60,997 nt of DNA, taken from positions 1 through 60,997 of the IMG/VR virus record IMGVR_UViG_3300048591_000195. One strand, given 5' to 3'. The notes below the pieces were generated by a model. That model worked only from the letters and a program-made list of their open reading frames with translations. It ran no database searches and was not told the origin of the DNA. Positions within the stretch are counted from its first letter, which is position 1. Each line of letters starts with the position of its first letter. Made by a program: the position numbers and the translations under genes. Positions 1,495 through 59,529 of the stretch are shown here, piece after piece. The stretch comes from a virus. Lineage: Duplodnaviria > Caudoviricetes.

Positions 1495-1504
1495 GATTTA
1501 TTTG

Positions 1505-1771
1505 TTAGTTGTTTGATTCCATAAATTCGGAATTTTTCCGGTCAAGTTCAAGGTTTTCGAGTAATTTATTCAGCGTGGTTATCTGACGGTTTACCCGCAC
1601 ATTTGTAAGCAGCATTTCAGATATACGCTTACCCGTTAGCCTTGCGTGTTTAGCTGCCCACCATTCAGGGCCAATCACAACCTGATTGTTTGAGAGCAGA
1701 ACCAGGTACTTTGTTTCCTTGCGCCTTAGTTTGCTTTTTAGAGGCTTGTTTGAGCAGGTTTGTATTTTCAT
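1505..1771 (-). CDS. hypothetical protein
   Basis: 88 aa ORF in the coupled early operon. Confidence 0.6.
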   Translation of the reverse strand: MKIQTCSNKPLKSKLRRKETKYLVLLSNNQVVIGPEWWAAKHARLTGKRISEMLLTNVRVNRQITTLNKLLENLELDRKNSEFMESNN

Positions 1772-4662: not shown

Positions 4663-4732
4663 AGTTGTTTGCGTTTTGTTAGTTGAAACCGGTTCGCGGG
4701 TTGCCGGTGCCCGTCCTGAATGAAGGAAACGA

Positions 4733-7392: not shown

Positions 7393-7467
7393 GATGTTTG
7401 TCTGTTAATTGATACCCTAAAAGTAATTATGTAGATTTTAAAAACCTAATAATATTTCAAGAAAATA

Positions 7468-33933: not shown

Positions 33934-34786
33934 GAAGTATATTTATTGCTTTAAATATCTGCAAAGCTACTTGCGGCACTATGGCGTTACCGTAGGCTTT
34001 GATTGATTCTGATCTCCATTTAGGAAAGGTAATTCCGTCCAGTCGGGAGGAAATCCCATCATCTCCCCTACAAATCGGGGATTGAGTTGGGAACCGCTCC
34101 CAACCGGTGCGAGCATGTTTAGATTTTCCTGATGGCTGTTGCTCGTTGTCTTGAACCCGTCCGCTGCGGATGGTGTTGGTAGTAGCCCCTCCGCCATGAA
34201 GTGTGTCAGGCTCATTGAATGAAATCCTACCTCGCTTACGGTTGCATCCTTCCTTAGATTCTTTATTCCAGTTCCGTCCTGTGCCGCTGGCGTTGGATAT
34301 AAGCCTCGATACAAACCAGATTCTATCCCTTCTGTGCGGAGCATTGACGGCACAAGCTGGAAGTAAAAACGGTGTGACTTCGTAGCCTTCAGCTTCCAAA
34401 TCAGCCTGCACTTCATCGAATACCATCCCTCCATTCCAATTAGTAAGGCCGCGAACGTTCTCGCCCACAACCCAGGTCGGTTGAATTTCTCGAATTGCTC
34501 TAAGCATTTCCGGCCAGAGGTGGCGGTCATCTTCCTTTCCAAGTCGCTTCCCTGCTGCGCTGTATGGCTGGCAAGGGAATCCGCCTGTGAAGATGTCAAT
34601 TGTTCCTCTGTGAATAGTGAAGTCTGTTTTGGTAATGTCATGGTAACTAATTGCGTTAGGCCAATAATATTTTAACACTCTTTGCCCGAAAGAATTCCAC
34701 TCGCAATGAAATACGTTTTCCCATCCCATCCATTCGGCAGCAAGATCAAAGCCTCCGATTCCTGAAAATAGAGAACCGTGCCTCAT
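33920..34786 (-). CDS. DNA (cytosine-5) methyltransferase, alpha chain
   Basis: SLFSGIGG, GGFPCQ, ENV, RRDRIW, YGNAIVP (motifs I, IV, VI, VIII, X). Confidence 0.95.
   Translation of the reverse strand: MRHGSLFSGIGGFDLAAEWMGWENVFHCEWNSFGQRVLKYYWPNAISYHDITKTDFTIHRGTIDIFTGGFPCQPYSAAGKRLGKEDDRHLWPEMLRAIREIQPTWVVGENVRGLTNWNGGMVFDEVQADLEAEGYEVTPFLLPACAVNAPHRRDRIWFVSRLISNASGTGRNWNKESKEGCNRKRGRISFNEPDTLHGGGATTNTIRSGRVQDNEQQPSGKSKHARTGWERFPTQSPICRGDDGISSRLDGITFPKWRSESIKAYGNAIVPQVALQIFKAINILHGSS
33979..34641 (-). CDS. alternative-frame beta chain of the C5 methyltransferase
   Basis: Nested 220 aa ORF in a different frame ending QLNPRFVGEMMGFPPDWT (motif IX-like). Confidence 0.75.
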   Translation of the reverse strand: MTLPKQTSLFTEEQLTSSQADSLASHTAQQGSDLERKMTATSGRKCLEQFEKFNRPGLWARTFAALLIGMEGWYSMKCRLIWKLKATKSHRFYFQLVPSMLRTEGIESGLYRGLYPTPAAQDGTGIKNLRKDATVSEVGFHSMSLTHFMAEGLLPTPSAADGFKTTSNSHQENLNMLAPVGSGSQLNPRFVGEMMGFPPDWTELPFLNGDQNQSKPTVTP

Positions 34787-35340
34787 TTCAAGTGGGATTT
34801 ATCCTTAATGTTCGATTTATTCAGCCTGTACGAATGAAACACATACGCCCCCCTGATAATCTTTACCCCGCCCTTTACGTTTCCTGCCGGTCGGGTGAAG
34901 TTGTAATCAAAGAACGCCCCGCGCTTGTCGATTATCCTTTCCTGAAACTTGTGTTTCTCCCAATACGACTTCCTGAATAAAAGAAAGAACCCCGCACAAA
35001 ATTTAACGTTCTGCTTACAATCCCCGTCTTTGTACTTCTCAGCCTGCTGCTCCGCTATCTTTATGTGATGCCGGATAGAATCGTTCTCGTCAATTACAGC
35101 CCCGGTAAGCCTTTGGTAAGATACCCCTACCCTGTTTGTCATGGCACCAAATACCAACGTTTCAGGATAGCGCCTTATTGCGGTTTCAATTACTTCATAA
35201 GTTTTTGGAGTAAGTATCATGCAGTCGTAATCGAGTAACAATATCCAATCATCCGAATTTGGTACAAGGCTGATATGTGAATTGTATTCTATACCAAACT
35301 TTGATTTATCTGTGGTGAATGGCTGAAACTTCCAAATCAT
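34783..35340 (-). CDS. GT-A-fold glycosyltransferase-like protein
   Basis: YN..I...DWILLLDYD (DxD), AGFFLLF.KS.W, FD..F, YVFH.YR. Confidence 0.7.
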   Translation of the reverse strand: MIWKFQPFTTDKSKFGIEYNSHISLVPNSDDWILLLDYDCMILTPKTYEVIETAIRRYPETLVFGAMTNRVGVSYQRLTGAVIDENDSIRHHIKIAEQQAEKYKDGDCKQNVKFCAGFFLLFRKSYWEKHKFQERIIDKRGAFFDYNFTRPAGNVKGGVKIIRGAYVFHSYRLNKSNIKDKSHLK

Positions 35341-37995: not shown

Positions 37996-38154
37996 TTAGT
38001 TGATAAGATTGTTTCCGAAATATATTAAAGAAATGCCAATTAGAATACCTGCCGCCAGACAAAATGCAAACCGCAGAATGTGAATGTCGATAGTGTTTTC
38101 GTCATTCTCCATTTGTTTTTTTATGTCCGATAGTTTAATGCTTTGCTTTTTCAT
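37996..38154 (-). CDS. small single-TM protein (52 aa)
   Basis: Manual translation MKKQSIKLS...FAFCLAAGILIGISLIYFGNNLIN*. Confidence 0.55.
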   Translation of the reverse strand: MKKQSIKLSDIKKQMENDENTIDIHILRFAFCLAAGILIGISLIYFGNNLIN

Positions 38155-40636: not shown

Positions 40637-40659
40637 ATTGATTTTAGTTAGTTGATTTT

Positions 40660-41037: not shown

Positions 41038-41049
41038 GTGATATTTTAG

Positions 41050-42309
41050 TTAGTTGATCTCCGTCTTTCCGTGGCTCGGTTTGCCCCCCGTACTACTCAC
41101 CACCTTATCCAACCAATACACTTTTGGGTTATGTTTGAATATTTCGTTGATGAACTGAAAATCTCCGCATACCCGATGCCCGAAATGATGGATAAATTTA
41201 GCAAATATTTCTTTCCGTACAATAAAACAACCCGTTCCTATTTGAGCTATCAATGGCTTTTTTCCCCAAACGTTAGGACTCGGATACAAATTGCCATAGT
41301 TCCCGTTCTGAATTATCATCCGGCACATAATCACATCAGGCCCGTGCTCCGCCTCAATACGTTCGATTTCCGGCACTATCTCGGATAGGGTCATAGCATC
41401 GTCATCATCAAGGCAGTAAACCCACCTGCCCGAAATAGCAGGCACTGAAAGCATAAAGGCGTGGTTGGCCATGCCTACCCCTAAACCTTTTTTATCCTTG
41501 ATAAATATCTGCTCAAACCTACCCACTAACCCCGATACGCTTTCCTGATTTCTCGCAAAGCCTTTCGGCCTCCTATCCCCATGCTGGCGGGTTATGATCG
41601 AAAGGACAGGACTACTATCTCCAACGTAGTAAATCTTGCTTATGCTGTAATTTTCACTCACTGTCATTATCCGGTAAAAGGCCGCATCCTGACCTATCCA
41701 CTTTTCAAGCTGCTTCAATCCGGTATCTGAATGCTGATATTTAATCCAGTCCTTTCCATGCCCTGCTCCCGCTACCTGTGTCAAGCCGTGCTTTATTCCA
41801 ATAACCAATAACCCATTTGGGGTAAATGTCTTTCGGGTGAACTTTGGATTTGTCCATATCCTGTAATCCAAATAAGGATCTGAATAGTCAAACTTGTGCT
41901 CGAGTACCTTTCGGGTTACCAGCGTAGAGTTCATGCTCGATCTGCCTGGATGCTTGAATAATGAAAACTTTCCGCTTATGTGATAGTAAAGGCTCCTGTC
42001 GATTCCGAATACATCGGGCTTTCCGGCTTTCTCCCATTCGGTTAGCATGGTTTGGAGGTATTTTGGAGAATACCAATCGTCATTCTCCATCACTATAACC
42101 ACATCACATTTTTGGTTTTCAAACAGGTCTTTGAAGCCAATGTGATAACGATATGTAATGTCTACCTTATCCCTGAATGATTCCGGCATTGTGTCGTTTA
42201 CCAGCCTGACGGTGTAGGATTGAAACGTCTGCCTTTCCAAATACTGAAAACACTTTGAAAGGAATAAAGGCCTGTCGCCTTTGTCGCAAATTATAATACC
42301 TACTTTCAT
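41050..42309 (-). CDS. tandem two-domain GT2/GT-A glycosyltransferase
   Basis: Domain 1 ENDDWYSPKYL; domain 2 SIITR...YCLDDDD...GDFQFI. Confidence 0.82.
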   Translation of the reverse strand: MKVGIIICDKGDRPLFLSKCFQYLERQTFQSYTVRLVNDTMPESFRDKVDITYRYHIGFKDLFENQKCDVVIVMENDDWYSPKYLQTMLTEWEKAGKPDVFGIDRSLYYHISGKFSLFKHPGRSSMNSTLVTRKVLEHKFDYSDPYLDYRIWTNPKFTRKTFTPNGLLVIGIKHGLTQVAGAGHGKDWIKYQHSDTGLKQLEKWIGQDAAFYRIMTVSENYSISKIYYVGDSSPVLSIITRQHGDRRPKGFARNQESVSGLVGRFEQIFIKDKKGLGVGMANHAFMLSVPAISGRWVYCLDDDDAMTLSEIVPEIERIEAEHGPDVIMCRMIIQNGNYGNLYPSPNVWGKKPLIAQIGTGCFIVRKEIFAKFIHHFGHRVCGDFQFINEIFKHNPKVYWLDKVVSSTGGKPSHGKTEIN

Positions 42310-42376: not shown

Positions 42377-42880
42377 TGTTATAAACAAGCCGCCCCGCCA
42401 ATTGCGGCTCAAACCCCATCTGGAACCCACCCGCATGTTGGCCAGACGGTGGACTCACAAACCTCAATGTTTGTGCAAGCCAACGTTGCCACCGCACATG
42501 TTTGGCCGCGCCACGCTTCGGGTCGGCCAGTTTATAACATGCAAGTTTATCCAATTAAAAAGCGTCATAGTGTGTGCGTATCTATTTATCTACTGCTTCT
42601 TGACGGTAAATTGAAAATCCGTTTTCAGCAAAATTTATTCTGCCTTTGTTTATGCATTCCTGACAATAATGATGGTAAACGGTTTTGTGTGGCACCCACT
42701 TGGACACCGTAGTAAAATTTTGCTTTACTTCACCATCATAACTGACAACGTTCCCACATGAATCACAATCTATTTCTTCAATGGTTGGGAACTTCTTTTC
42801 AATTTCTCGTATCATAATCTTTACTTATTTAGTTTGTGTTCGCTTTTTAACTGTATAAACTTGCCGCTACATTAGCGGTA
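42377..42880. repeat. attC-like nested inverted-repeat element
   Basis: TGTTATAAAC...GTTTATAACA pair, then a 24-bp inverted repeat (42541-64 / 42841-64) enclosing an ORF. Confidence 0.6.
42582..42815 (-). CDS. small Zn-binding hypothetical protein
   Basis: CDSC...CQEC; sits inside the inverted repeat. Confidence 0.65.
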   Translation of the reverse strand: MIREIEKKFPTIEEIDCDSCGNVVSYDGEVKQNFTTVSKWVPHKTVYHHYCQECINKGRINFAENGFSIYRQEAVDK

Positions 42881-42922
42881 ATGCCAGTGAGCCAAGAGCA
42901 AAACCTGCTGCTGATGCTACGC

Positions 42923-43136
42923 TCAAATCAAATCAAAAAGACCACCGTTATTTAATGCATCTTTAACGTCTTTGTCAAGGTCTTTCATTTTAGCCAAATC
43001 CACGCTCATGGTTTTGTCCACCGCGCCACTGGCACGCGCAACTAACCTTCCACAACTATCACATATTTGATTTTCAAAATCTGCTGTTACTTCTCCATTT
43101 CGGTTTCATACCATTGTTTTCTTTTTCGTTTGTCAT
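42923..43136 (-). pseudogene. apparently frameshifted small ORF
   Basis: The ATG 43136 frame stops after 20 codons; a second frame (GEVTADFENQICDSCGR...FDLI*) lacks an early start. Confidence 0.4.
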
Positions 43137-43139
43137 TTC

Positions 43140-43706: not shown

Positions 43707-43817
43707 TTTTGATGTTTTGTTATTGTTAGTTGAAGCGCACGACCCCGATCCGCCTGACCGAGGCCGTTGTTATCACCTTTTAAATTACCGTTATGCTACA
43801 AGTAAATAATTCGCGCT

Positions 43818-44282
43818 TCATGTTAATTCTATTTCACCATCGTAAAAACCAACTCCCTGCTTGCCTCTGAATTCAAATGGTTTGATGCGGCATACATTCT
43901 CGAACCTCAAACCCCATAGAACATGATCGTCAACCGTGATCGGTGCATTTGACTCCCACAAAGTAAGATCAGTATCGATGTATGCTGAAGGCTCCAATAC
44001 CGGTGTCATTAGAATCAATTCAACCAAATCACCAACAGCAATAGCATATCCACACAAGTCTGCGGTTGGCTCATCCTTCAGGATAGTCTTCGCTTCAAAT
44101 GCCATTCTACCAGCAACGTAATTAAATTCAGCATCAGAATATCTTTTCTTGGTGGAGTAAATCAAATACTTACCAAGAGGGAATGGTGGCTTTTTCCCCT
44201 TTTGAACCCACCTGCTTTCCAGCTTTCCGTGAAGCATTAGGGATGCGTATGGTTGATATAAGCCGATTGTTCTGATTTTCAT
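43818..44282 (-). CDS. ASCH-domain protein
   Basis: L.QPYASL...GKLESR...LIYS...GKQG. Confidence 0.8.
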   Translation of the reverse strand: MKIRTIGLYQPYASLMLHGKLESRWVQKGKKPPFPLGKYLIYSTKKRYSDAEFNYVAGRMAFEAKTILKDEPTADLCGYAIAVGDLVELILMTPVLEPSAYIDTDLTLWESNAPITVDDHVLWGLRFENVCRIKPFEFRGKQGVGFYDGEIELT

Positions 44283-44304
44283 TTTTATTTGTTAGTTGAC
44301 ACAA

Positions 44305-44347: not shown

Positions 44348-45553
44348 TTATTTCACCTCCCAGCGGGTGCCTCGGCTCATTAGGATGTATCTGGTTAAAT
44401 CAATAATGTGATCTGGCTGACCATCTTCGGGTATGCCCAAAATCTCATTGGTTTTCTTATCCCGCTTGTAACGGTAGTTATCCAACTCATTGTAGGCATC
44501 ATTTGAGCCCTCTACAACATAAATATCGTAATCGTGGAATAACCGGATACTCGTTTCTACGCTCTTTTTCTTTACCCGCTCAACGTAGAACCCCGCTGCC
44601 CTCATGTCGTTTACCGCCCTCGGATCGGCTGACTCGGCTATTATCCGGTGTTTGGGATTGACTCCTTTTGACTTCAAAATATCGCACAGGTTCACAACCC
44701 CATTACCCTGCGCGTTAATGCTCAACTTTGTATCGTAGACTATCTGCTGAATATACAGGCTATCCTTAACCCCTCCCCGTTTTATCCACAACCGGCAAAA
44801 GGCAGTAGGATCAGGGAAAAAACCGAAATCTAACCCAGAAGGTATCTCAACGGCATCATCCGGCACTTTCGACACCCACTTGATAAACGGCATTATGCGC
44901 TCCTCCAATAGTACCCCGTCCTGACCCAAGCCGTATACCTTCCACCAGTAATCCCACCAAGGATCGGTTCTCGACAATTCCTTTGCTCTTAAAATGTACT
45001 CAAGGCGCTTTTTAGGTAGGAACTCCAAATTGTCTACAAAAGTGGAATGAATGACTTTTGTCTTTGGGTCGTTCACTACGTTTTGCGTCTGCAGCCAAAA
45101 TTTGTGGGAAGGATTGTAGTCGATAAAGATTACCTCATCCGTCCGCTGGCTAAGTTGAACGTAGGACTCCCAGCTTATTCCCCTGTTTGGTTCATTCACC
45201 CAAAGTATATCCCGGGAAGGCCCGACCGCCCGGCTGGCATCATCACCCAAAGAGAAATATTCAATTATCGAATTATTGATAAGATACTCCCGCCTGCTTG
45301 GCACATGGGTACGCTGGAAGCCCTCCCGCCTCATGTACTTGGAATATTCGGTTATTACCCCGCGCCTTAAGTGATCGTTTGTCTGGCTGACTATTGAGGT
45401 TTTACGCGACTTCTTGGAGTGGGCTGAAATCCAGTCCTGCAACTGAATCAGGCTATGAGTTTTTGAGGAACCGGTGCCCCCCTTGTTTATGATGGTGGTG
45501 TAACCGTCCCGATAAGCTTTTAGATTCTTGAAAAAGACTTCAGTGACTTTCAA
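44348..45553 (-). CDS. terL: terminase large subunit (PBSX/Terminase_3-like)
   Basis: GGTGSSKT Walker A, LWVNE Walker B, DYNP, HSTFVDN, GLDFGF..DP, DH.ID..RY; TTG start. Confidence 0.95.
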   Translation of the reverse strand: MKVTEVFFKNLKAYRDGYTTIINKGGTGSSKTHSLIQLQDWISAHSKKSRKTSIVSQTNDHLRRGVITEYSKYMRREGFQRTHVPSRREYLINNSIIEYFSLGDDASRAVGPSRDILWVNEPNRGISWESYVQLSQRTDEVIFIDYNPSHKFWLQTQNVVNDPKTKVIHSTFVDNLEFLPKKRLEYILRAKELSRTDPWWDYWWKVYGLGQDGVLLEERIMPFIKWVSKVPDDAVEIPSGLDFGFFPDPTAFCRLWIKRGGVKDSLYIQQIVYDTKLSINAQGNGVVNLCDILKSKGVNPKHRIIAESADPRAVNDMRAAGFYVERVKKKSVETSIRLFHDYDIYVVEGSNDAYNELDNYRYKRDKKTNEILGIPEDGQPDHIIDLTRYILMSRGTRWEVK

Positions 45554-45583
45554 TTTGCAATCTGTTTCTTAAGTTTGTTACCT

Positions 45584-45859
45584 TCATCCAAGTTTTATCT
45601 CAAAAACATCTACAGGATTACAGCCGAAAAACTTATGCTCAATTGTAACAATTTCAATGCTAACTATTTTTTTTCTTATTCGAGGTGCGTTTTTGGCATA
45701 TCCCAATTGAAAAGTTACATGCTTCCATTGTTTTGACGTTAGCCTGTTAAGCCAATATTCTGTTAGCAGTCTATACTCAGATGTTTTTCTTCCAGACTTT
45801 ATATAGTCAAAATATTCACTTTTTAGAATCAGAAACAAATCTTTCATTGAATTTATCAT
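45584..45859 (-). CDS. ASCH/PUA-like protein
   Basis: L.LKSEYFD.IKSG.KTSEYR...YW..RL...F.LGY. Confidence 0.8.
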   Translation of the reverse strand: MINSMKDLFLILKSEYFDYIKSGRKTSEYRLLTEYWLNRLTSKQWKHVTFQLGYAKNAPRIRKKIVSIEIVTIEHKFFGCNPVDVFEIKLG

Positions 45860-45893
45860 TTACATGATTATTAATTATTTGCTGGATATAACA

Positions 45894-46004
45894 TCAGACA
45901 CTTGCAGGGGTTTCGTTGTTGTGTAATCCAGCTTCAATGAAATTACAAACTTGACCATTAACTGAAACTGATTGTTTTTCGATGTTGATTGTGATTGTTT
46001 TCAT
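45894..46004 (-). CDS. small hypothetical protein (36 aa)
   Basis: Manual translation MKTITINIEKQSVSVNG...; ATGA-coupled. Confidence 0.4.
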   Translation of the reverse strand: MKTITINIEKQSVSVNGQVCNFIEAGLHNNETPASV

Positions 46005-46207
46005 ATCTTTTTTGTTTTGTTTAATTTTTTTCGGATGACGGGTACACGATAAAGAGTAACCTCAGCATCTAAGTACGGGCGTTCGTTGCGTGACAAATGA
46101 TATTGAATAGTCTCGTAATTTCGCCCTGGATAATATTCAAGGAAAACAGTTAAGGTCGAGTAGCATTCTACCCGACCGTCTGACCATTGCGCGATGATTA
46201 CTCTCAT
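46001..46207 (-). CDS. hypothetical protein
   Basis: 68 aa, coupled. Confidence 0.6.
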   Translation of the reverse strand: MRVIIAQWSDGRVECYSTLTVFLEYYPGRNYETIQYHLSRNERPYLDAEVTLYRVPVIRKKLNKTKKI

Positions 46208-46365
46208 CCTATCTGATTTTTTGAAAGGCGAAGCGTACCTTTTTCTATCTCTCTTCCGCCTTCTTTCAAGCGTTCACGAGCTTCGCGAATATTGTTTGCC
46301 CGAATTTCAGTTGTAACCCACTGATCTTTTTCGTTTGAGCGTGTCCATGCTGTGTACTTTTTCAT
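46204..46365 (-). CDS. small hypothetical protein (53 aa)
   Basis: Manual translation MKKYTAWTRSNEKDQW...; downstream of a promoter. Confidence 0.55.
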   Translation of the reverse strand: MKKYTAWTRSNEKDQWVTTEIRANNIREARERLKEGGREIEKGTLRLSKNQIG

Positions 46366-46390
46366 AACTGTGTTTGTTTAAATTGTTACG

Positions 46391-46421
46391 TAAATATACA
46401 CATAAAAACGTAAAAGTCAAT
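46391..46421 (-). promoter_or_regulatory. candidate promoter
   Basis: TTG-N19-TATATTTA. Confidence 0.5.
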
Positions 46422-46518
46422 AGGTGGTTACCGAAATAGTATAATATTTTAGTAAATATTTTCAAAACCTTTTAAATTAGGGTAAAAACGAAGATTGTAA
46501 GAATCTCTTAATTTAGTA

Positions 46519-46956
46519 TCAAATTGAGGCTTTGTACTCAAATGAGGCTGTTATTCGATTTGAGGATATAGTGGATTTAAATGAATTTGAGATACTATTA
46601 CTATTACTTTTTCTGCTAACCGTTTTACACAGCCAATTTTGATGCCTTTTTAAACCAAACACAAGCGCTGGAGATGATGTTGTAATACCTATTCTAAACC
46701 CTTGTTGTACCAGAATTTTAGCAATTTCAGTTAAAAATAGTATGCCGATTGATGCTCCTTGATAGTCGGGCAATATGACAAGACGATGTATTTTCCTCAT
46801 GTTTTGTACCCTTGGATGAGGGAAATGAATAACACTGCAATACCCACAAACTTGATTGTTTATTATAGCTATATATACTTTTGCGGAATTAGCGTGATCT
46901 GAACTCAGATAATGATGTCGAGCAAACCTGAAATTTAACGCTAAATTTAACTTTCT
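46519..46956 (-). pseudogene. 5'-truncated GNAT acetyltransferase domain
   Basis: The frame is open upstream of ATG 46800 (FARHHYLS...VCGYCSV.HFPHP...HRLVILPDYQG.SIG) but has no standard start codon before the stop at about 46957. Confidence 0.6.
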
Positions 46957-47016
46957 TCATTAATTTCAAAATATTATTTCGTTTTAGCGGTAACCATACG
47001 GTGGTGAACAGTCATT

Positions 47017-47586
47017 TTATTCTGCCTTATCTATGTTCGACTGCTCTATTATCGCCTTATCCGAGGGGTCTAACTGGGCCATCACCTCCTTCAACAGCTC
47101 CGCCCGCGTCTTATCCGATACCTCCGGCTCCGGCTTCTGAACTACCGTAGCGTCTATAACCTGGCGCATCATTACCTTTCCGAATGACCTGTCCATGATT
47201 CTGTCCAACATCTCCATACCCCTCGGTGAACCCATGTACTTTGCAACCAACCTTAGAAAATATGGCTTTTTTTTGTCTTTTAGGATGTCTTTTACCCCGT
47301 TTTCATCCAATTGGAGTAGCATTTGGTAGGCATCAACAATCTGGCTTTCCGTTACCGGTTGGTATCCCTGCTCGCGTAATTCTTGTACGATGTGGTGGAT
47401 TAGTTTGGGAGGACGGCCCTTTTTGTTGATTCTTTCGGGGTGTGTGTGGAAGCCCTGACCCTCAATGTTTTCTGTTCCTGGTTTCTTTCCGTTGTTCGTC
47501 CGTTGTTTAATTTGGCCTTTATTTGCGTTCTGCGGGGCTTTCTCTTTTGGGGTGGCTTTATGTGTCTTACTCGAAGATGGTGCCAT
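47017..47586 (-). CDS. putative terminase small subunit
   Basis: GF..HPERINKKGRPPK and ..DRSFGK motifs; upstream of terL. Confidence 0.65.
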   Translation of the reverse strand: MAPSSSKTHKATPKEKAPQNANKGQIKQRTNNGKKPGTENIEGQGFHTHPERINKKGRPPKLIHHIVQELREQGYQPVTESQIVDAYQMLLQLDENGVKDILKDKKKPYFLRLVAKYMGSPRGMEMLDRIMDRSFGKVMMRQVIDATVVQKPEPEVSDKTRAELLKEVMAQLDPSDKAIIEQSNIDKAE

Positions 47587-47605
47587 AGGGGGCTTATTTT
47601 AAGTT

Positions 47606-47782
47606 TTACAGGATGTAGTTTCCTACTTGCGTGTTCTCGGTTGCTTTCTTGAAATCCTGAATGTTTTCTTCAATGGTGAATATTTTTATCAGTAGGCATT
47701 TTAGGTAGCTTTCTGATCTTGGAGAATTTACATAACGGTTTATTAGGGTGTCCTGCATTATCTGTAATTCTTTGAGGGTCAT
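47606..47782 (-). CDS. small hypothetical protein (start re-called at ATG 47782)
   Basis: MTLKELQIMQD... Confidence 0.5.
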   Translation of the reverse strand: MTLKELQIMQDTLINRYVNSPRSESYLKCLLIKIFTIEENIQDFKKATENTQVGNYIL

Positions 47783-47783
47783 T

Positions 47784-47960
47784 TTAGTTCTGGCCAAGCT
47801 GGTAAAAAATTAAAGGGTCGGTTTTTGATTGGTAGAACTCAAAGGCCATGCAGGAACGGTGATACTCTTTCAGGACTTGTTTGGCCTGCCGCCTTTCTGT
47901 TTCCTTTGAGAAGCCTCCGAGTTTTTTGAACTCGTTCCATAGGTCTACTGGATTGTTCAT
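47784..47960 (-). CDS. small hypothetical protein (58 aa), probably leaderless
   Basis: Manual translation MNNPVDLWNEFKKLGGF...; TTTG-N20-TAAATTGG ends a few nt before the ATG. Confidence 0.55.
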   Translation of the reverse strand: MNNPVDLWNEFKKLGGFSKETERRQAKQVLKEYHRSCMAFEFYQSKTDPLIFYQLGQN

Positions 47961-47993
47961 AGTGCCAATTTATAGGATTTGGGGCTATTTACC

Positions 47994-48030
47994 AAAAAAA
48001 AGAAACCGGAGGGACATCACCCCCTCCGGT
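47994..48030 (-). terminator. rho-independent terminator
   Basis: ACCGGAGGG-ggtgatgt-CCCTCCGGT then TTCTTTTTTTT. Confidence 0.85.
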
Positions 48031-48074
48031 ACTATCAACTAACAAACGGTTGAGCATGGGATGCTCTTGGCGTG
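47994..48074 (-). ncRNA. candidate trans-acting sRNA (about 80 nt)
   Basis: Consensus promoter, 5' hairpin GAGCAT-ccc-ATGCTC, unpaired seed GTTTGTTAGTTGAT and terminator; no ORF. Confidence 0.65.
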
Positions 48075-48079
48075 CGATT

Positions 48080-48111
48080 CAAAACTAAAAAACATACAGT
48101 TAAAAAACAAA
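48080..48111 (-). promoter_or_regulatory. Bacteroidota sigma70-type promoter
   Basis: TTTG(48111-08)-N20-TAGTTTTG(48087-80), consensus match. Confidence 0.78.
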
Positions 48112-48134
48112 GCGGGGTTTTTAGGCCCCGCCTT
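48102..48134 (-). terminator. rho-independent terminator ending the replication operon
   Basis: AAGGCGGGG-cctaaaaa-CCCCGCTTT-GTTTTTT. Confidence 0.8.
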
Positions 48135-48317
48135 AATTGCTACTCTGTTCTTATTTTGCCTGATTGCTGACATACCCCTATGGCCAAGTCTAATTTGTAT
48201 GCTTGGAATTTATTTGCCGAAATGTTGCTATCGCATAGGTCACTAAGTTCAGGGAAGAAGTAGAAAGACAGAGAGCAAATTTTTTATCCATTCGTAGCGG
48301 TTGTTGGTGGTTTTTAA

Positions 48318-48854
48318 TTACGCGACTTTCATTAACTGAAATCCAGGGAACAAAGGCATCTGGCCCTGTTCGTCCATCTTGCCGGATAGGTAGCTGTATG
48401 CCTCTTCAACCAAATCCTCAAATACGGCCTGTAACTTGTCAGCGTTAGCGTACTTTACACTATCGTCTGATTGTGGGTACAAAGTGCATTGAGGTGTTTT
48501 TATCTGGATGATCTTTCCGGTTGACTTTACCAGCTTGAATAGCGTCATGGTTATCCGGCACTGCTGCAATAGGTAATCGCCATCTACTTTTACCTCGCTT
48601 ATGCCCCATTGGTTTATGTCCTTTGAATCGACTGCGATTTCACATAGTTCTAAGGCGTGTTTCCTTAGTTTCTTCATGCAATCTACAAAATCCTTGTGTG
48701 GCCGGTTCGGGGATTTGACCTTGTAAGAATGAGGTTTGGCTGGGGCATCTTCCGATTCCTCGCTGTCGTTCGATGTTACTACATCAAAGTGAATTTCAAC
48801 TGAATCCAATTCAGGTGAAATCTTGATTTTACGGGGTTGTTTTTCCTGTGTCAT
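48318..48854 (-). CDS. conserved hypothetical protein
   Basis: PH.DF....KLR.H and E...YL.GK..Q..LF pattern. Confidence 0.65.
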   Translation of the reverse strand: MTQEKQPRKIKISPELDSVEIHFDVVTSNDSEESEDAPAKPHSYKVKSPNRPHKDFVDCMKKLRKHALELCEIAVDSKDINQWGISEVKVDGDYLLQQCRITMTLFKLVKSTGKIIQIKTPQCTLYPQSDDSVKYANADKLQAVFEDLVEEAYSYLSGKMDEQGQMPLFPGFQLMKVA

Positions 48855-49090
48855 ATTGGCTCTTTTACGTGATCTTGCAAGTACTCAATTAGCTGGCGGG
48901 GTGTAACAAGTTCGACCGCCTTGTCATCTGGAATCATAATATCAAACTCTTTTTCACAGGTCATTATCAGTTCCACCTGATCGAGTGAGTCTATACCCAA
49001 ATTGTTGAAAGGCTGATCGAGGTCGTAATCTTCAATCTTATTGAATCCCATTTGCTCAAGTTGTTCGTTGATTTTTGATTTATAGTCCAT
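48851..49090 (-). CDS. acpP: acyl carrier protein
   Basis: LGIDSLDQVELIMTCEKEFDIMIPDD.A, phosphopantetheine Ser motif, 79 aa acidic. Confidence 0.92.
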   Translation of the reverse strand: MDYKSKINEQLEQMGFNKIEDYDLDQPFNNLGIDSLDQVELIMTCEKEFDIMIPDDKAVELVTPRQLIEYLQDHVKEPI

Positions 49091-49092
49091 TG

Positions 49093-49608
49093 TTATAAGT
49101 TTAAATCTTGGATTGCATAGTGATACAAATGTAAGGCATCCGCTTCATCATCAGATTCAATATTTGCCTTGTACTTTCTTGCTGCCTCAATCATTTTTGC
49201 CTTATTAGCGTTCCCGTTTCCGGTTGCAAATTTCTTTATTTCCTTTGCTGAATATGCCTTGTACTCAATCTGGTTTTCTTCACAGAATAGTTTGAGTACC
49301 CCTATCAATTCAGCCGCTACAATTATAGCGTTTTTATGGAAACCAGATACACGCTCAAAGACAATCATTCTTATTCCTTCAATAGCGCATATCTCTTTTA
49401 GTTTTCCCTTAAACCTGATTACCCGCATACCCGCACTTTCATCACGCTTTGGGGTAAAATTCCATACCCCGCTGGCAGTATCACAACAGAATCCGGTATG
49501 AGTGGCAACGTCAAGGGCAAGTAATCGGGTTGATCTTTTGCCTTCAAATGGATTTGCTATTGTATCAGCGTTTTGAAACAATTCTCCTAAAGTTATTTTT
49601 TTAGACAT
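49093..49608 (-). CDS. RuvC-like Holliday junction resolvase
   Basis: LALD...TG, VFE, IKKFATGNGNA.K..M, DDEADA. Confidence 0.88.
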   Translation of the reverse strand: MSKKITLGELFQNADTIANPFEGKRSTRLLALDVATHTGFCCDTASGVWNFTPKRDESAGMRVIRFKGKLKEICAIEGIRMIVFERVSGFHKNAIIVAAELIGVLKLFCEENQIEYKAYSAKEIKKFATGNGNANKAKMIEAARKYKANIESDDEADALHLYHYAIQDLNL

Positions 49609-50368: not shown

Positions 50369-50371
50369 GGG

Positions 50372-50647
50372 CTACGGGTTTTCGATTGGACTTACTTCAA
50401 AAACATGAAATACCAAACCATTACTAAGTTGAAAAGTATCAATATAAAGGTAATCAATAGGCCAAAATGGATTACCTGTACCAATAATAGCTAAAGTTAT
50501 TTTATCTTTTGCATTATCGGTGTCAACAAGAGCCCACAACACAGGTGTACCGTTTTGAACCTGAACGCTAAGTATTTCAGCAAACTTATAGCTCTCAATC
50601 TGAATTTTATCAGATATTTCTAAGGTGTATTTATGTATTGTCCTCAT
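50372..50647 (-). CDS. conserved phage hypothetical protein
   Basis: TIHKY.L...ILSVQ.Q...LWALVD...GTG...Y..TFQ...LVFHVFE. Confidence 0.75.
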   Translation of the reverse strand: MRTIHKYTLEISDKIQIESYKFAEILSVQVQNGTPVLWALVDTDNAKDKITLAIIGTGNPFWPIDYLYIDTFQLSNGLVFHVFEVSPIENP

Positions 50648-51762: not shown

Positions 51763-51773
51763 TGGTGTGATGG

Positions 51774-52772
51774 TTAGTTGATAAGTGATAATTGATTATT
51801 GGTTTTAAATCGAGATTTAACTGACTCAAGATTTAATTTCGCTTGCTTAAAATAACTTTCTTTTAGTTCAACTCCTATAGCTTTCCGTCCCAATGAAACG
51901 GGGCTATAAACCTCACTTCCAACTCCCATAAATGGAGTTAATACAACTTCATCAGGATTGGTGTATAAATACACTAATCTATCAATAACATCTAACTGCA
52001 ATGGATGAACATGCTTTTCATCGTCATCCTCCTTGCTTTCCTTAAAAGGCAAAACATTATTTCCCCTTATATCATCCCACACACTTGAAGCATAACGCTG
52101 CCATGTAATATGAGATAACTTATTTACCGATGGATCACCTTCAAAATTTATCCACTTCTTTTTAAATAGTTCGTATTTACCATATTGTTCTTCATGCATA
52201 GGCAAAAATGGTGATGAGCCAAAATAATCAAAATCAGTCAATCCATTTTTATGAGTAACAGGCACTTTATTTTCACCGCCTTTTCTGAATATTAAAACAT
52301 AATCAGGAATAGCCGTAAAACATCTTGTTGAATCTTCAACAATGTTTTTATGTGTTAATGACTGCACCATTGTTCTCATTCTAACCTCCAAAGGTTCCTT
52401 CCATATTGTTATTCTATTGTTATAAGTAAATCCATATTTTAAATGCAACTTAATAACCTCATGAGGAAAATCCCAAAGATTATGCTTAGTTGTTTGGACA
52501 ATAATATCCTGACAATGTACTGCACATATACGACCAGGTTTTAAAACCCTTGAAACTTCATTTACTAAAAACTCATATTGAATTAAAAAATCTTCAAAAC
52601 TTTCATTATTACTCATATCTCTTTTATCCGAAGAGTAAATATAAAGCCCAGCAAAAGGAGGCGAGTAAACACATAAATCAATTGAATCATCAGGCAATTG
52701 AGGTATTACATCCATGCAATCACCGTTATAAATACTGTATTTATCCGTGTTGATCTGTTCTTTTACTTTCAT
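51774..52772 (-). CDS. DNA amino-methyltransferase (N4-C/N6-A, beta class)
   Basis: YSPPF catalytic motif, HVHPLQLDVI, VLTPFMGVGS. Confidence 0.92.
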   Translation of the reverse strand: MKVKEQINTDKYSIYNGDCMDVIPQLPDDSIDLCVYSPPFAGLYIYSSDKRDMSNNESFEDFLIQYEFLVNEVSRVLKPGRICAVHCQDIIVQTTKHNLWDFPHEVIKLHLKYGFTYNNRITIWKEPLEVRMRTMVQSLTHKNIVEDSTRCFTAIPDYVLIFRKGGENKVPVTHKNGLTDFDYFGSSPFLPMHEEQYGKYELFKKKWINFEGDPSVNKLSHITWQRYASSVWDDIRGNNVLPFKESKEDDDEKHVHPLQLDVIDRLVYLYTNPDEVVLTPFMGVGSEVYSPVSLGRKAIGVELKESYFKQAKLNLESVKSRFKTNNQLSLIN

Positions 52773-54127: not shown

Positions 54128-54157
54128 TGATTGTTGATGTTAGTTGATGAAACAAAT

Positions 54158-55376: not shown

Positions 55377-57503
55377 TTAAAATGGTGGGTCTTCCGGTAA
55401 CGGTGCGTTCATGTTTGGCTTTGCCTGTTTCATCTTTGCGTAATGGTTCTCGTACTTCATTTCAGATTGATGCCCCTTCAATAATGAGCCGTCAATCGGA
55501 CAAACACCATTAAAAAAAAACCTGTTTGTTAATTCATCAAAATGAATCTGATCGAAGTATCCTAACTTTGTCGTTAATTCCTGACTGCGTTGCTTCAATG
55601 TGTAAAAACTGCCTTTCGGGCTATTTGGGTTTATATGCTTCTCATGCCTGTGGTACGAAAATATTCCATCCATTGAATTATCCCAAGCAGAGCCACCCAA
55701 CAAATCATGCTGTGTTACTACCTTATATTCTCCATTAAGTTTTCCGTTCTTTCTCATTCGCCTTTCGTCCATGCTTTTCGGGTGAGCAATTAAGTTTCCG
55801 ACCATATCCGTATCAAGAACCAAATCCTCAAATTCACCAAACACCCTTTCAAGAACCACGTCCTTTGTTGTCTTTCCTTCATCTATCGTTAAGTTCTTCC
55901 ACGGGTCAAGTAAGAATCCATCCGTTCCAAAAGTTTCATATAGGTTTTTAAATCCTTCAATTACTGTTTTTGGTGCCCGGTCTTTGTGAGTATCCAATAC
56001 AAAAAAATGCTGCTCTATCCATAACATCGCAGCCTGATATTCTGCCAAAGTCATTTGATTGCCTTTGTGTTTGTATGGGTTCTTTCCCGTGTACGCATGA
56101 ATCAGAATATTATAAATCTTGTGCGCTGATCTTACCATTCTGCCGTCCGAATTTTTTACCGAATCAATCATTTCAGGACTCCATATCGCCCACTTCCAAT
56201 CGTCAATAACAGACTTCACCAACATCAAGAAAAGCACGAGGCCAGTATTATGTGTTGGAACAAACGATCGGCCTGATAGATACAGATGACTTGGGGAATC
56301 AACCTGAATACATTTTACAGGAACACTATTTATAGGATCACATGAAACAATACTTCTGTACCGACAATTCAATCTTATTTCTTTTGAAAGTCTTTTTTTC
56401 TTTCTTGGTAAAGAGAAAACATCTTTGTTAGTTTTAAAAGTTATTCTATATCGATCCGATGTTTTTCTGCCATATAATTTAGCATCATATTTTTTAGAAT
56501 AACATTTGATGCCTAATGAATTTATCAGTGTATAAACATGGTTAGATAAATTAAAATTTGTACTGGTAAACTCCATATTTCCTGTTTTTGAAGCTGTGCC
56601 GTCAGAATCCATTAACCCCCTTAATAACTCCATTCTATCACTTTCATCACTAAATAAATAAATATCTGGAATATGTTTATTGTGCAGTAATTTCAATTCA
56701 ACCATTTGTTTTCTTACTCCATGAATCGTGAATTCTCCACAGTTTCTATTCCTCTTATCTGGCCTAAAAGTACCAACCTCATAACCTAATGATGTTAATT
56801 TTTGTAAATAAAAATTGTAATCATCAAAAGAGCTTGTTATTGAATTTGTTCTTGAATTTCCATCACCAAGCCATAAACCAATTATATAAGGATGAACAGG
56901 TAAATTATTTTTACTACATTTTATTGGTTTCGCAACAGGAACATAATGTTTATATCTTTTATTACCATTAACATCAATTCTATCGATCAATGTTCGACTA
57001 ATTTCATAAGTAGTGACAATTGATGGTTGTACCATCTTATATGATTGATCGGTTCCTCTTAATTTAAGAGGCCCTCTCCTTTCGTTTCTATATAGGCTAT
57101 TAACAGCATGAGAACTATATGTTTTCCATAAATGATCCTCACAACAAATTTCCTCAGTTCCATCACTAAATGTAATTTTATAGCATCTTTTATTAAACTG
57201 AACTTCGGTTACGAACGTAACATTACATTGATTACCATTTTCATCAAAGACGATATCACCTGCTTTTAAATCCAACATCTTTTTAAACCCGTTTGGAGTT
57301 GGTATTTCTGTATGTATCCACTGAGCTTTCCCGAAACCCGCAAATCCAGTAAACGCATTTAAAAAACCACGCATCCAACTGAATATATTTTCCAAGTCAG
57401 AAATACGGCACTTATCCGCAATCTTTCCTCCCTCCTTAAAATCAACTATTAATCGTGATATGTTTGGAGGTAAGTACCCGCCTATGTTTCCGTTATCTGA
57501 CAT
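55377..57503 (-). CDS. SF4 (DnaB/gp4/Twinkle-like) replicative helicase domain with intein
   Basis: TGFAGFGK|T Walker A split by the intein; WSPE, LLDPW, IAHP, GGSAW.NSMD. Confidence 0.88.
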   Translation of the reverse strand: MSDNGNIGGYLPPNISRLIVDFKEGGKIADKCRISDLENIFSWMRGFLNAFTGFAGFGKAQWIHTEIPTPNGFKKMLDLKAGDIVFDENGNQCNVTFVTEVQFNKRCYKITFSDGTEEICCEDHLWKTYSSHAVNSLYRNERRGPLKLRGTDQSYKMVQPSIVTTYEISRTLIDRIDVNGNKRYKHYVPVAKPIKCSKNNLPVHPYIIGLWLGDGNSRTNSITSSFDDYNFYLQKLTSLGYEVGTFRPDKRNRNCGEFTIHGVRKQMVELKLLHNKHIPDIYLFSDESDRMELLRGLMDSDGTASKTGNMEFTSTNFNLSNHVYTLINSLGIKCYSKKYDAKLYGRKTSDRYRITFKTNKDVFSLPRKKKRLSKEIRLNCRYRSIVSCDPINSVPVKCIQVDSPSHLYLSGRSFVPTHNTGLVLFLMLVKSVIDDWKWAIWSPEMIDSVKNSDGRMVRSAHKIYNILIHAYTGKNPYKHKGNQMTLAEYQAAMLWIEQHFFVLDTHKDRAPKTVIEGFKNLYETFGTDGFLLDPWKNLTIDEGKTTKDVVLERVFGEFEDLVLDTDMVGNLIAHPKSMDERRMRKNGKLNGEYKVVTQHDLLGGSAWDNSMDGIFSYHRHEKHINPNSPKGSFYTLKQRSQELTTKLGYFDQIHFDELTNRFFFNGVCPIDGSLLKGHQSEMKYENHYAKMKQAKPNMNAPLPEDPPF
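56247..57326 (-). mobile_element. class-3-type intein (360 aa) with LAGLIDADG homing endonuclease
   Basis: Starts with Ala (AQWIHTEIPTPNG), ends VPTHN before Thr; DHLW, VKCIQV; GLWLGDG and LRGLMDSDG. Confidence 0.92.
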
Positions 57504-58182
57504 TCAATTCCTCTATTTCTTTTAGTTCCTTTTTGCATTTATCCAGTTGAACAAATACGTCCACAGTATCGTCATAGCAATCCTGATGTATCTTGCTACC
57601 GTATTCAATCAGTTTTCTTTTGATAGCCATTTCAATAACACAACGCGCATGGTATTCTAAGTTTGCAGCACTCGATACCTTTGAGGTTAATTCAGCGATG
57701 TAATGCGCTCCGCCAATCATTTCCAGTTTACCCGACTTTCTTAAGGCCATTACCACAGTACGCATATCAATTGCCATGTTTTCAGCCTTCATTTTTTGTA
57801 GGGTTGAAAATATCTCCTGATGGGCCGGATTGTAAAAGCTATCAGGATTCATAATTAAAAGCACCTTTTCGGTTTGGTCGTTGTTCTCCAACATCAATGC
57901 CCCAAGTATTGCCTCCTCCAAGTCAATCGCCTGCGGGGGTATCTTTCCTAAATCATCACGCTTTTTTATTTCATCTTCATAGGCTCGGAGTAGCTTTTCA
58001 ACTACGTTAATGAATAGGTTATTTTCCTGGATTTTGATTTTAATCTTTTGCGATGGTTCCTTGTATCGTTCCAGTAATTCAACGGAGTTCTTGAATTTCT
58101 TTAAATAGAAACTAACTTCGTCCTTTAAGTCTTGCAGGCGAGGCTTTTGCTTGTACGTTGATGTTTTGTTAGTTGATTGCAT
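57493..58182 (-). CDS. DnaB-like helicase N-terminal-domain protein
   Basis: PPQAIDLEEAILGALM...FY..AHQ.IF...ID..TV...GGAHYIAELT..V.SAAN.EYHA. Confidence 0.9.
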   Translation of the reverse strand: MQSTNKTSTYKQKPRLQDLKDEVSFYLKKFKNSVELLERYKEPSQKIKIKIQENNLFINVVEKLLRAYEDEIKKRDDLGKIPPQAIDLEEAILGALMLENNDQTEKVLLIMNPDSFYNPAHQEIFSTLQKMKAENMAIDMRTVVMALRKSGKLEMIGGAHYIAELTSKVSSAANLEYHARCVIEMAIKRKLIEYGSKIHQDCYDDTVDVFVQLDKCKKELKEIEELNVR

Positions 58183-59194: not shown

Positions 59195-59520
59195 AGTCCA
59201 AGTCTGTTTATTTCGTTAACCATTTTAACAACTTTCTTTGTTGCGACTCTCATGTTAAGAGCCTGCAAGTAAACCAATTCAGGTCTTTGATTTACCTTGT
59301 GATGTATTGTGTCTGTTATTTGTCCTTTAACCTTTACCTCAAATTCAATTTTTGTTTCGATTAATTCAATTGATCCGGTTACAGGATTCCAACCGAATAA
59401 ACTAAGTCAGGGTATTTTTCTCATTCTCGCATTTAGTTTGTATTCATGCGGGACAGGTACCTCAAGAATTGTATTTAACTTTTCCTGATTTAAGTTTGTT
59501 GGGTTTAGTTGATTGTCCAT
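59191..59520 (-). pseudogene. 109-codon gene interrupted by one in-frame TGA (59407-59409)
   Basis: MDNQLNP...MRKIP*LSLFGWNPVTG...YLQALN...GL*; its end is ATGA-coupled to the next gene. Confidence 0.7.
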
Positions 59521-59529
59521 GTCATTAAG

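Follow-up and report, generated by a model that had tools for sequence, protein, structure and literature searches.

A putative phage small RNA complementary to a start tag shared by non-structural genes of a likely Bacteroidota phage

A single phage product can act on the start regions of many messages. In bacteriophage T4, RegA lowers the translation of many early genes by binding their start regions, and the P4 CI RNA, a phage small RNA that serves as an immunity factor, represses phage functions via complementary boxes. Here these and other described systems are set beside a predicted small RNA (sRNA) of about 80 nucleotides (nt) on the minus strand of virus record IMGVR_UViG_3300048591_000195. 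The record is linear, 60,997 bases long and 74% complete (26% of the genome is missing), and its whole length is called the window below. An unpaired stretch of the predicted RNA, the seed, is the exact complement of a short C/A-rich word, the tag, that recurs at the starts of the phage's own non-structural genes.

The closest described tag system is SAS, the start-associated motifs of Cluster K mycobacteriophages. These motifs are short, asymmetric, present in many copies and in one orientation just before the starts of non-structural genes only, and they sometimes include the upstream stop codon; SAS-like motifs occur in Microbacterium cluster EF phages, and the cited papers leave the partner of SAS as 'RNA or protein' (PMC3203893, PMC11373665, PMC12699233, PMC7302621). 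K1 phages carry a single reverse SAS copy (PMC3203893). Among RNA regulators, GcvB silences mRNAs at C/A-rich (ACA) enhancers upstream of start sites (PMC3879156), StxS acts in trans by base pairing, also on a phage transcript (PMC7547250), and the P1/P7 c4 antisense RNA is a phage small RNA that represses phage functions via short complementary boxes (PMC12197685). GibS and FopS of Bacteroides thetaiotaomicron pair at the start regions of mRNAs that lack Shine-Dalgarno (SD) sites (PMC7366714, PMC11697453), and FopS blocks translation initiation (PMC11697453). Within the collection of papers searched, no account turned up of a phage-encoded RNA directed at a start tag common to several genes. 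The first-pass annotation of this locus likewise knew of no such system, a statement that needs qualifying in that GcvB, StxS, P1 c4 and SAS each share part of the design; in kind, the predicted sRNA would be a variant form among the base-pairing sRNAs with many targets and among the antisense regulators of phages.

The tag, TCAACTAAC, is the commonest 9-mer in windows from -30 to +15 around gene starts (8 of 94 starts). All eight of its exact minus-strand copies lie inside such windows, about 0.3 copies were expected, and the count was reached in none of 100 shuffles; the tag is clearly non-random. Near-copies stand at three further starts (1494, 37984 and 7392). The offset of the tag varies, from 8-21 nt ahead of the ATG to +6 or +9 past it at two starts (58182 and a 37-amino-acid (aa) open reading frame (ORF) starting at 59520), and at four places the TAA inside the tag doubles as the stop of the preceding gene. 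This variable position and the shared stop codons speak for a site that is read on mRNA, and not for a promoter. A promoter was rejected on the two copies past the ATG and the four that overlap an upstream stop 9-12 nt before the next ATG, and a DNA operator is disfavoured by the copies within coding sequence and over stop codons near the next start.

No tag occurs in the structural block, at about 8 to 33 kb. The tagged set comprises the genes for DnaB-N, an SF2 helicase, a 372-aa and a 154-aa protein, a DnaQ-like exonuclease and Erf, together with two small proteins that follow a glycosyltransferase and proteins of 61, 102 and 97 aa. The tagged genes, about eleven, are non-structural genes in general and not specifically the replication and recombination programme proposed in the first-pass annotation, whose 'ASCH' label was not reproduced (no Pfam or PHROG family). 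At three genes a TAnnTTTG-like (-7-like) box ends 5 nt ahead of the tag (54147, 44299 and 7412), so those mRNAs may begin at the tag.

The counterpart of the tag lies in the gap 47961-48317, which at 357 nt is the largest of 52 intergenic segments. An insulated unit had been proposed there, and its upstream terminator, promoter, hairpin, unpaired stretch and strong terminator are all present on the minus strand (Table 1), the upstream terminator lying at 48135-48108 and not at 48102-34 as first placed. This terminator closes the upstream replication-module operon, and its U-run supplies the -33 TTTG of the sRNA promoter. The promoter fits the Bacteroidota sigma-ABfr consensus as quoted in PMC7366714. 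Only two full TTTG-N18-22-TAnnTTTG matches occur on the minus strand in 61 kb, the second being intragenic, and the sRNA promoter is the sole intergenic full match of Bacteroidota type in the window. Downstream, the stem of the sRNA terminator spans 48030-48005 and the terminal UUUCUUUUUUUU tract runs down to 47994; the 80-nt RNA 48075-47996 has a predicted fold of -26.8 kcal/mol in which the seed stays unpaired. A 22-codon minus-strand frame, read by eye from the sequence, crosses the sRNA terminator. Rfam 15, GcvB included, gave zero matches at gathering score across the whole window, the best match in the gap reaching 21.8 bits against a cut-off of 56.

Within the seed, positions 48043-48035 are the exact complement of TCAACTAAC, which bears out the complementarity first noted, and for the open stretch the exactly complementary sequence is ACTATCAACTAACAAACGGTT. 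At ten gene starts, uninterrupted Watson-Crick pairing extends over 13, 12, 12, 11, 11, 11, 11, 10, 10 and 10 nt. The lengths agree with those first given (13 nt at 58177-58165, 12 nt at 44299 and 4686, and otherwise 11 or 10 nt), and where at least nine genes had been proposed the count is ten starts with 10-13 nt. Two tagged starts are additional to the original list, 37984 (one of these ten) and 7392, where the tag has one mismatch. At the DnaB-N-like gene the 13-nt pairing holds, although it falls in codons 3-7 and not in the leader to which it had been assigned. Ten of the 11 minus-strand seed matches of at least 10 nt lie at gene starts, and the eleventh (56433) is inside the primase gene. 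Of 91 gene starts, 10 have a predicted duplex with the seed at -14 kcal/mol or better, where shuffled seeds average 1.6 starts; the strongest duplex at any start is that of 7392 (-18.4 kcal/mol, G-U pairs included). An unbiased k-mer pipeline recovered the locus, and no other complex k-mer from the start windows had an antisense copy in an intergenic segment.

A second sense-strand GTTAGTTG was seen at 43039-43046, in another long non-coding gap, 42816-43139 (324 nt). It matches 8 of 9 anti-tag positions and has GATAGTTG before it and no U-run terminator after it; it may be chance.

The genome in which this pairing would operate appears to make little use of SD sites. SD-like words stand before no more than 8 of the 94 starts, compared with 15% of random positions, and A makes up 45% of leader sequence. 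Speculatively, the tag could pair with the 16S rRNA of the host and the sRNA could mimic that stretch of rRNA. On sequence grounds the host is likely, though not proven, to belong to the Bacteroidota; the 15 best cultured matches of the large terminase (TerL) are all phages of Bacteroides or Parabacteroides, at 32-34% identity.

The reading favoured here, in which confidence and doubt are evenly balanced, is that a trans-acting, G/U-rich phage sRNA of about 80 nt occludes the C/A-rich start tags of about eleven genes together. Host RNA polymerase would transcribe the sRNA from the consensus Bacteroidota promoter, and the strong intrinsic terminator would end it at about 80 nt. Its unpaired middle would pair over 10-13 nt, and longer with G-U pairs, with the tag (A)UCAACUAAC(AAA). 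In a host without SD pairing, the A/C-rich stretch ahead of the AUG would be the landing place of the 30S subunit, so a duplex there would block initiation, and the whole tagged set would be turned down at once. The anatomy, the complementarity and the confinement of the tag to gene starts are observed; the transcription of the sRNA, its pairing in vivo, repression as the direction of the effect and its timing are inferred. The observation in the first-pass annotation thus stands, and its interpretation is supported in part. A role in immunity or a carrier state would be pure conjecture; no integrase or repressor was found among 44 different proteins scanned (20 against Pfam, 40 against PHROGs) from the 74% complete record.

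A wider proposal is made more tentatively, at somewhat less than even confidence: some phages may mark a whole class of their non-structural genes with one start tag and encode a single mirror sRNA, by which all of these genes would be switched off (or on) together, with no need for a repressor protein. Such an sRNA would be the RNA counterpart of T4 RegA, which differs in being a protein with loosely conserved, AU-rich sites. The lone reverse copy known from phages with SAS could descend from such an arrangement as a remnant, or be another form of it.

Like the locus studied here, GcvB sets a single-stranded G/U-rich seed against C/A-rich elements in the start regions of many mRNAs, and the position of its enhancers is flexible, as is that of the tag (PMC3879156). 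In contrast, GcvB is a longer RNA that the host encodes, it depends on Hfq, and SD sites are present in its targets; the targets of the phage sRNA share a near-identical 9-mer and are the phage's own, and the two RNAs have no sequence or Rfam relation. StxS is likewise a short RNA with a strong promoter and a terminator directly upstream of late genes (PMC7547250); unlike the present unit, it depends on Q antitermination, Hfq and RNase E processing, and its few targets are not known to share a start tag. GibS and FopS come from the same probable host phylum, which lacks Hfq, and use single-stranded seeds around start codons (PMC7366714, PMC11697453), but they are chromosomal, metabolic and non-phage RNAs with other seeds and targets and no dedicated tag. 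The c4 and P4 CI RNAs differ in addressing two sites in one operon transcript, from which they are processed, and in serving lysogeny.

SAS is an asymmetric, one-orientation motif at non-structural starts, and by the same formal criterion so is the tag. The two differ in that SAS is a 13-mer, GGGATAGGAGCCC, with a Shine-Dalgarno core and the tag is C/A-rich in an SD-less setting; no promoter-terminator cassette has been shown in Cluster K. In Mycobacterium phage Anaya, a reverse SAS copy lies in a 385-nt non-coding gap after a terminator (34683-35067 of locus L019; 59682-60066 of the record), where it is the 10-nt loop CCUCCUAUCC of a long predicted hairpin (z = -4.0) and mirrors SAS. This gap is conserved in 182 Cluster K phage records.

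The alternative that survives best, unlikely as it is, holds that the late operon for packaging and structure begins with this unit, whose main role would be that of a terminated leader in the manner of the lambda pR'-tR' 6S RNA. The promoter would fire constantly, the terminator would stop transcription unless a phage factor permitted read-through, and the mirroring of the tag would be accidental or, on the pattern of StxS, a function of second rank. The layout is that of pR'-tR', a constitutive promoter and a terminator directly upstream of a late operon: the unit directly precedes the 58-aa, 63-aa and 189-aa genes and TerL, its sole intergenic full consensus promoter is followed by the -19.5 kcal/mol terminator, and past that terminator lies only the weaker promoter-like TAAATTGG element, with 5 of 6 fixed -7 positions matched. 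StxS, a stable pR' product ended at tR' that acts in trans, is a precedent (PMC7547250). Against this stand the lack of any recognised Q-like antiterminator, the upstream 178-aa protein, which has no family of assigned function and no clear fold match, and a by-eye, non-exhaustive reading in which no sequence that might rival the terminator stem was noticed. The near-consensus TAAATTGG element over the U-run could also serve the downstream genes alone, speculatively giving the 58-aa gene (ATG 47960) an mRNA with almost no leader, and a late leader leaves the mirroring of the tag by the unpaired stretch unexplained. A late leader and an sRNA that occludes the tags are compatible and do not exclude each other; the packaging operon follows the unit directly, so one RNA may serve both as sRNA and as terminated late leader.

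The 189-aa gene (47017-47586) may encode the small terminase. It matched no family, and in relatives without 45509-46962 it abuts TerL, as a small terminase would.

Occlusion of the tags by the sRNA has several further observations against it. A consensus host promoter would fire from the onset of infection, which is awkward for late shut-off. By chance, 0.415 exact reverse copies of the 9-mer are expected on the plus strand in 61 kb, giving a probability of 0.34 for at least one. A 19-nt weight matrix from eleven sites scores the seed copy level with a coding-region site (10486), and 177 of 1000 shuffles reach that matrix score. In the duplex comparison at -14 kcal/mol, one shuffled seed reached nine starts. 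When duplexes are ranked genome-wide, starts account for 5 of the 15 best sites and 7 of the best 30, with start regions making up 10% of the genome. The G/U-rich seed wobble-pairs with many A/C-rich stretches; on duplex energy alone it is promiscuous and only weakly specific, the enrichment of starts being mild. The tag is also a sharply bounded 9-mer, identical at 8 sites with weak flanks, and in this it resembles a protein site of fixed width more than it does the usual targets of sRNAs. Relatives that are 43-47% identical in the 178-aa protein have other sequence at the syntenic place, and in two of them, G001 (complete) and G002 (59% complete), both a complex start tag and an RNA that mirrors one are missing. 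Among 11 aligned Cluster K phages, the SAS-mirror loop is altered in Hammy, Krueger and Bryler and absent in Yuna and Scarlett, and Krueger and Hammy keep the canonical SAS despite the changed loop. The loop thus varies where SAS is constant, so there is no covariation in Cluster K; the loop may simply mimic the anti-Shine-Dalgarno sequence, and the parallel with a phage tag and its mirror RNA is suggestive, not supportive.

The chance figures and the poor specificity of the energy ranking would suit a coincidence, in which the tag (an enhancer or a protein operator) and the unit are both real and their complementarity has no function. That reading is nonetheless quite improbable. Arithmetic from base composition gives about 9e-5 for a reverse copy in the 21-nt unpaired stretch and about 0.026 for one at any of the 3871 intergenic bases; the seed copy agrees with the tag consensus over 13 nt (ATCAACTAACAAA), and the k-mer pipeline yields no other complex k-mer of the kind. 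What makes the reverse copy notable is where it lies; that one exists is no surprise.

Still less credit is due to a reading of 48035-48043 as a sense copy of the tag acting on the plus strand, either as the start tag of a 61-aa ORF (48061-48246) or a 10-aa ORF (48056) or as a protein site on double-stranded DNA. The two ATGs, 12 and 17 nt past the tag, fall inside the 8-21 nt range of the other genes, the 61-aa product has a hydrophobic stretch, and the sharp bounds of the 9-mer would fit. The 61-aa ORF contradicts the earlier statement that the unit holds no ORF, the substance of which survives in that the ORF is not coding-like: its codon score of -0.10 ranks 88 of 112 plus-strand ORFs and falls under 36 of 37 small real genes (the lone lower gene was mis-framed), and it has no Pfam or PHROG family. 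The ORF also crosses the minus-strand promoter and terminator, a TAnnTTTG box is absent from the plus strand of the gap, and the minus strand carries all 94 genes of the manual list and 90 of 98 automatically called ORFs. A DNA site would leave unexplained the single orientation of the other copies at starts and the two inside coding sequence. A riboswitch or attenuator is unsupported, with zero Rfam matches and no competing helix noticed.

Close relatives appear to keep the unit. The locus is spanned, at about 93-94% identity and with a single gap among the matches listed, by contigs from four DNA runs that belong to four compost and soil studies, so the unit is probably kept at that distance. 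The closest more distant relative (L007, 59% identity in the 178-aa protein) carries TCCACTAACAAAC ahead of that gene, and its contig stops 42 nt past the 178-aa homologue. Start words in G001 and G002 are A-rich only; the lack of tag and mirror RNA in distant relatives suggests that the system is young or lineage-specific. Searches of GenBank phages with 47000-49600 (blastn) and with the 178-aa protein (tblastn) gave zero matches. A related-locus search found none with the 178-aa protein alone and, with TerL, 3 loci at 33-34% identity; an alignment of 9 homologues of the 178-aa protein found 2 viral loci, 12 metagenome loci and 0 genome contigs, the 189-aa protein found one distant, uninformative locus, and the 419-aa protein found 0 loci among genome contigs. 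In IMG/VR, one seed pattern gave 0 matches; a seed 16-mer gave at least 119, mostly in one unrelated abundant prophage family, and none among the matches listed had the window's context or several tags.

The 178-aa protein (48318-48854), encoded just upstream of the unit, belongs to a phage family of 9 members with invariant PHKD and KKLRK motifs. Its structural model, a confident one (predicted local distance difference test, pLDDT, 77.7), has two beta-beta-beta-alpha halves, for which no clear fold match (best Z 5.2, best Foldseek E 5e-3) and no named Atlas cluster were found; Pfam and PHROG scans gave no family with an assigned function.

In descending coordinates along the minus strand, the map begins with small early genes, a DnaB-N-like gene and a primase/helicase gene, continues with NinB, an HNH endonuclease, the SF2 helicase and a methyltransferase, and reaches the gap through an exonuclease, RuvC, an acyl carrier protein and the 178-aa protein. 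Past the gap come the 58-aa, 63-aa and 189-aa genes and TerL, then further non-structural genes, the structural block and lastly the Erf-like gene. GC skew shows no switch at the sRNA locus and so gives no sign of a replication origin there. Many structural genes (for example 18626, 16718, 15338, 14910, 14487, 31154 and 29558) have a (T)TTAAA word 10-17 nt ahead of the start codon, as do genes of the distant relatives L005 and L006; this recurrent word may be an SD-less ribosome-landing signal or a late-promoter element.

Several segments are missing from the close relatives. Inside the primase/helicase gene (55377-57503), the 1080 nt at 56247-57326 (360 codons, in frame) are absent in four of four runs and encode a LAGLIDADG homing-endonuclease domain (residues 282-359); the in-frame absence and the domain indicate that this stretch is very probably an intein. 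The seed match at 56424-56433 (AACTAACAAA), the only 10-nt match away from annotated starts, lies in this intein region with an ATG one base later, out of frame with the primase. Also missing in four of four runs is 50371-50645 (a 91-aa gene, phrog_3848), and 59195-59529 (335 nt) is replaced by 11 nt in all four. Among the matches listed, 45509-46962 is missing in run X1 and 45553-47015 in run X9, and 43774-44284 (the 154-aa gene) is missing in run X1. By their sequence distribution, 50371-50645, 59195-59529, 45509-46962 and 43774-44284 appear to behave as small mobile or dispensable cassettes.

Table 1. Predicted elements of the promoter-terminator unit and seed-complementary sites at gene starts in the window.
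Feature	Positions	Strand	Details
Intrinsic terminator	48108..48135	minus	10 pairs, 6 G-C, then TTTTTT; -15.6 kcal/mol, rank 3 of 20 on the strand
Sigma-ABfr-type promoter	48080..48111	minus	TTTG (48111-48108), N20, TAGTTTTG (48087-48080)
Predicted small RNA, about 80 nt	47994..48075	minus	start taken from the promoter, end from the terminator
5' hairpin GAGCAU-CCC-AUGCUC, 6 bp	48052..48066	minus	from predicted fold
Predicted unpaired G/U-rich seed, 21 nt	48031..48051	minus	AACCGUUUGUUAGUUGAUAGU; high unpaired probability in fold
sRNA intrinsic terminator	47994..48030	minus	10-bp stem, 7 G-C, then UUUCUUUUUUUU; -19.5 kcal/mol, rank 2 of 20
Possible second, weaker promoter	47965..47996	minus	TTTG (47996-47993), N20, TAAATTGG (47972-47965)
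Site, 13 nt perfect pairing	58165..58177	minus	codons 3-7 of DnaB-N-like gene (start 58182)
Site, 11 nt	54138..54148	minus	SF2 helicase leader (start 54127); exact TAGATTTG box (54160-54153) 5 nt upstream
Site, 11 nt	51773..51783	minus	ahead of 372-aa gene (start 51762); tag TAA is the upstream methyltransferase stop
Site, 12 nt	44288..44299	minus	ahead of 154-aa gene (start 44282)
Site, 11 nt	43723..43733	minus	ahead of DnaQ/RNase_T-like exonuclease gene (start 43706)
Site, 10 nt	41049..41058	minus	ahead of 125-aa gene (start 41037); tag TAA is the upstream gene's stop
Site, 10 nt	40647..40656	minus	ahead of 136-aa gene (start 40636)
Site, 10 nt	37996..38005	minus	ahead of 61-aa gene (start 37984); tag TAA is the stop of the upstream 52-aa gene
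Site, tag variant TCAATTAAC, one mismatch	7404..7412	minus	ahead of 102-aa gene (start 7392)
Site, 12 nt	4675..4686	minus	ahead of 97-aa gene (start 4662)
Site, 11 nt	1501..1511	minus	ahead of Erf-like gene (start 1494); tag TAA is the upstream gene's stop

The present case is anatomical only, and its value is that of one more clean, independently checkable instance. If an sRNA does occlude the start tags, a virus would run a temporal or immunity programme purely by RNA, and compactly. It would do so in the Bacteroidota, a phylum whose translation start signals and sRNA biology are poorly known. Start-associated motifs, whose role has been open since 2011, would gain a concrete partner, and the tag and its RNA would make a ready-made orthogonal translational switch for hosts without Shine-Dalgarno sites.

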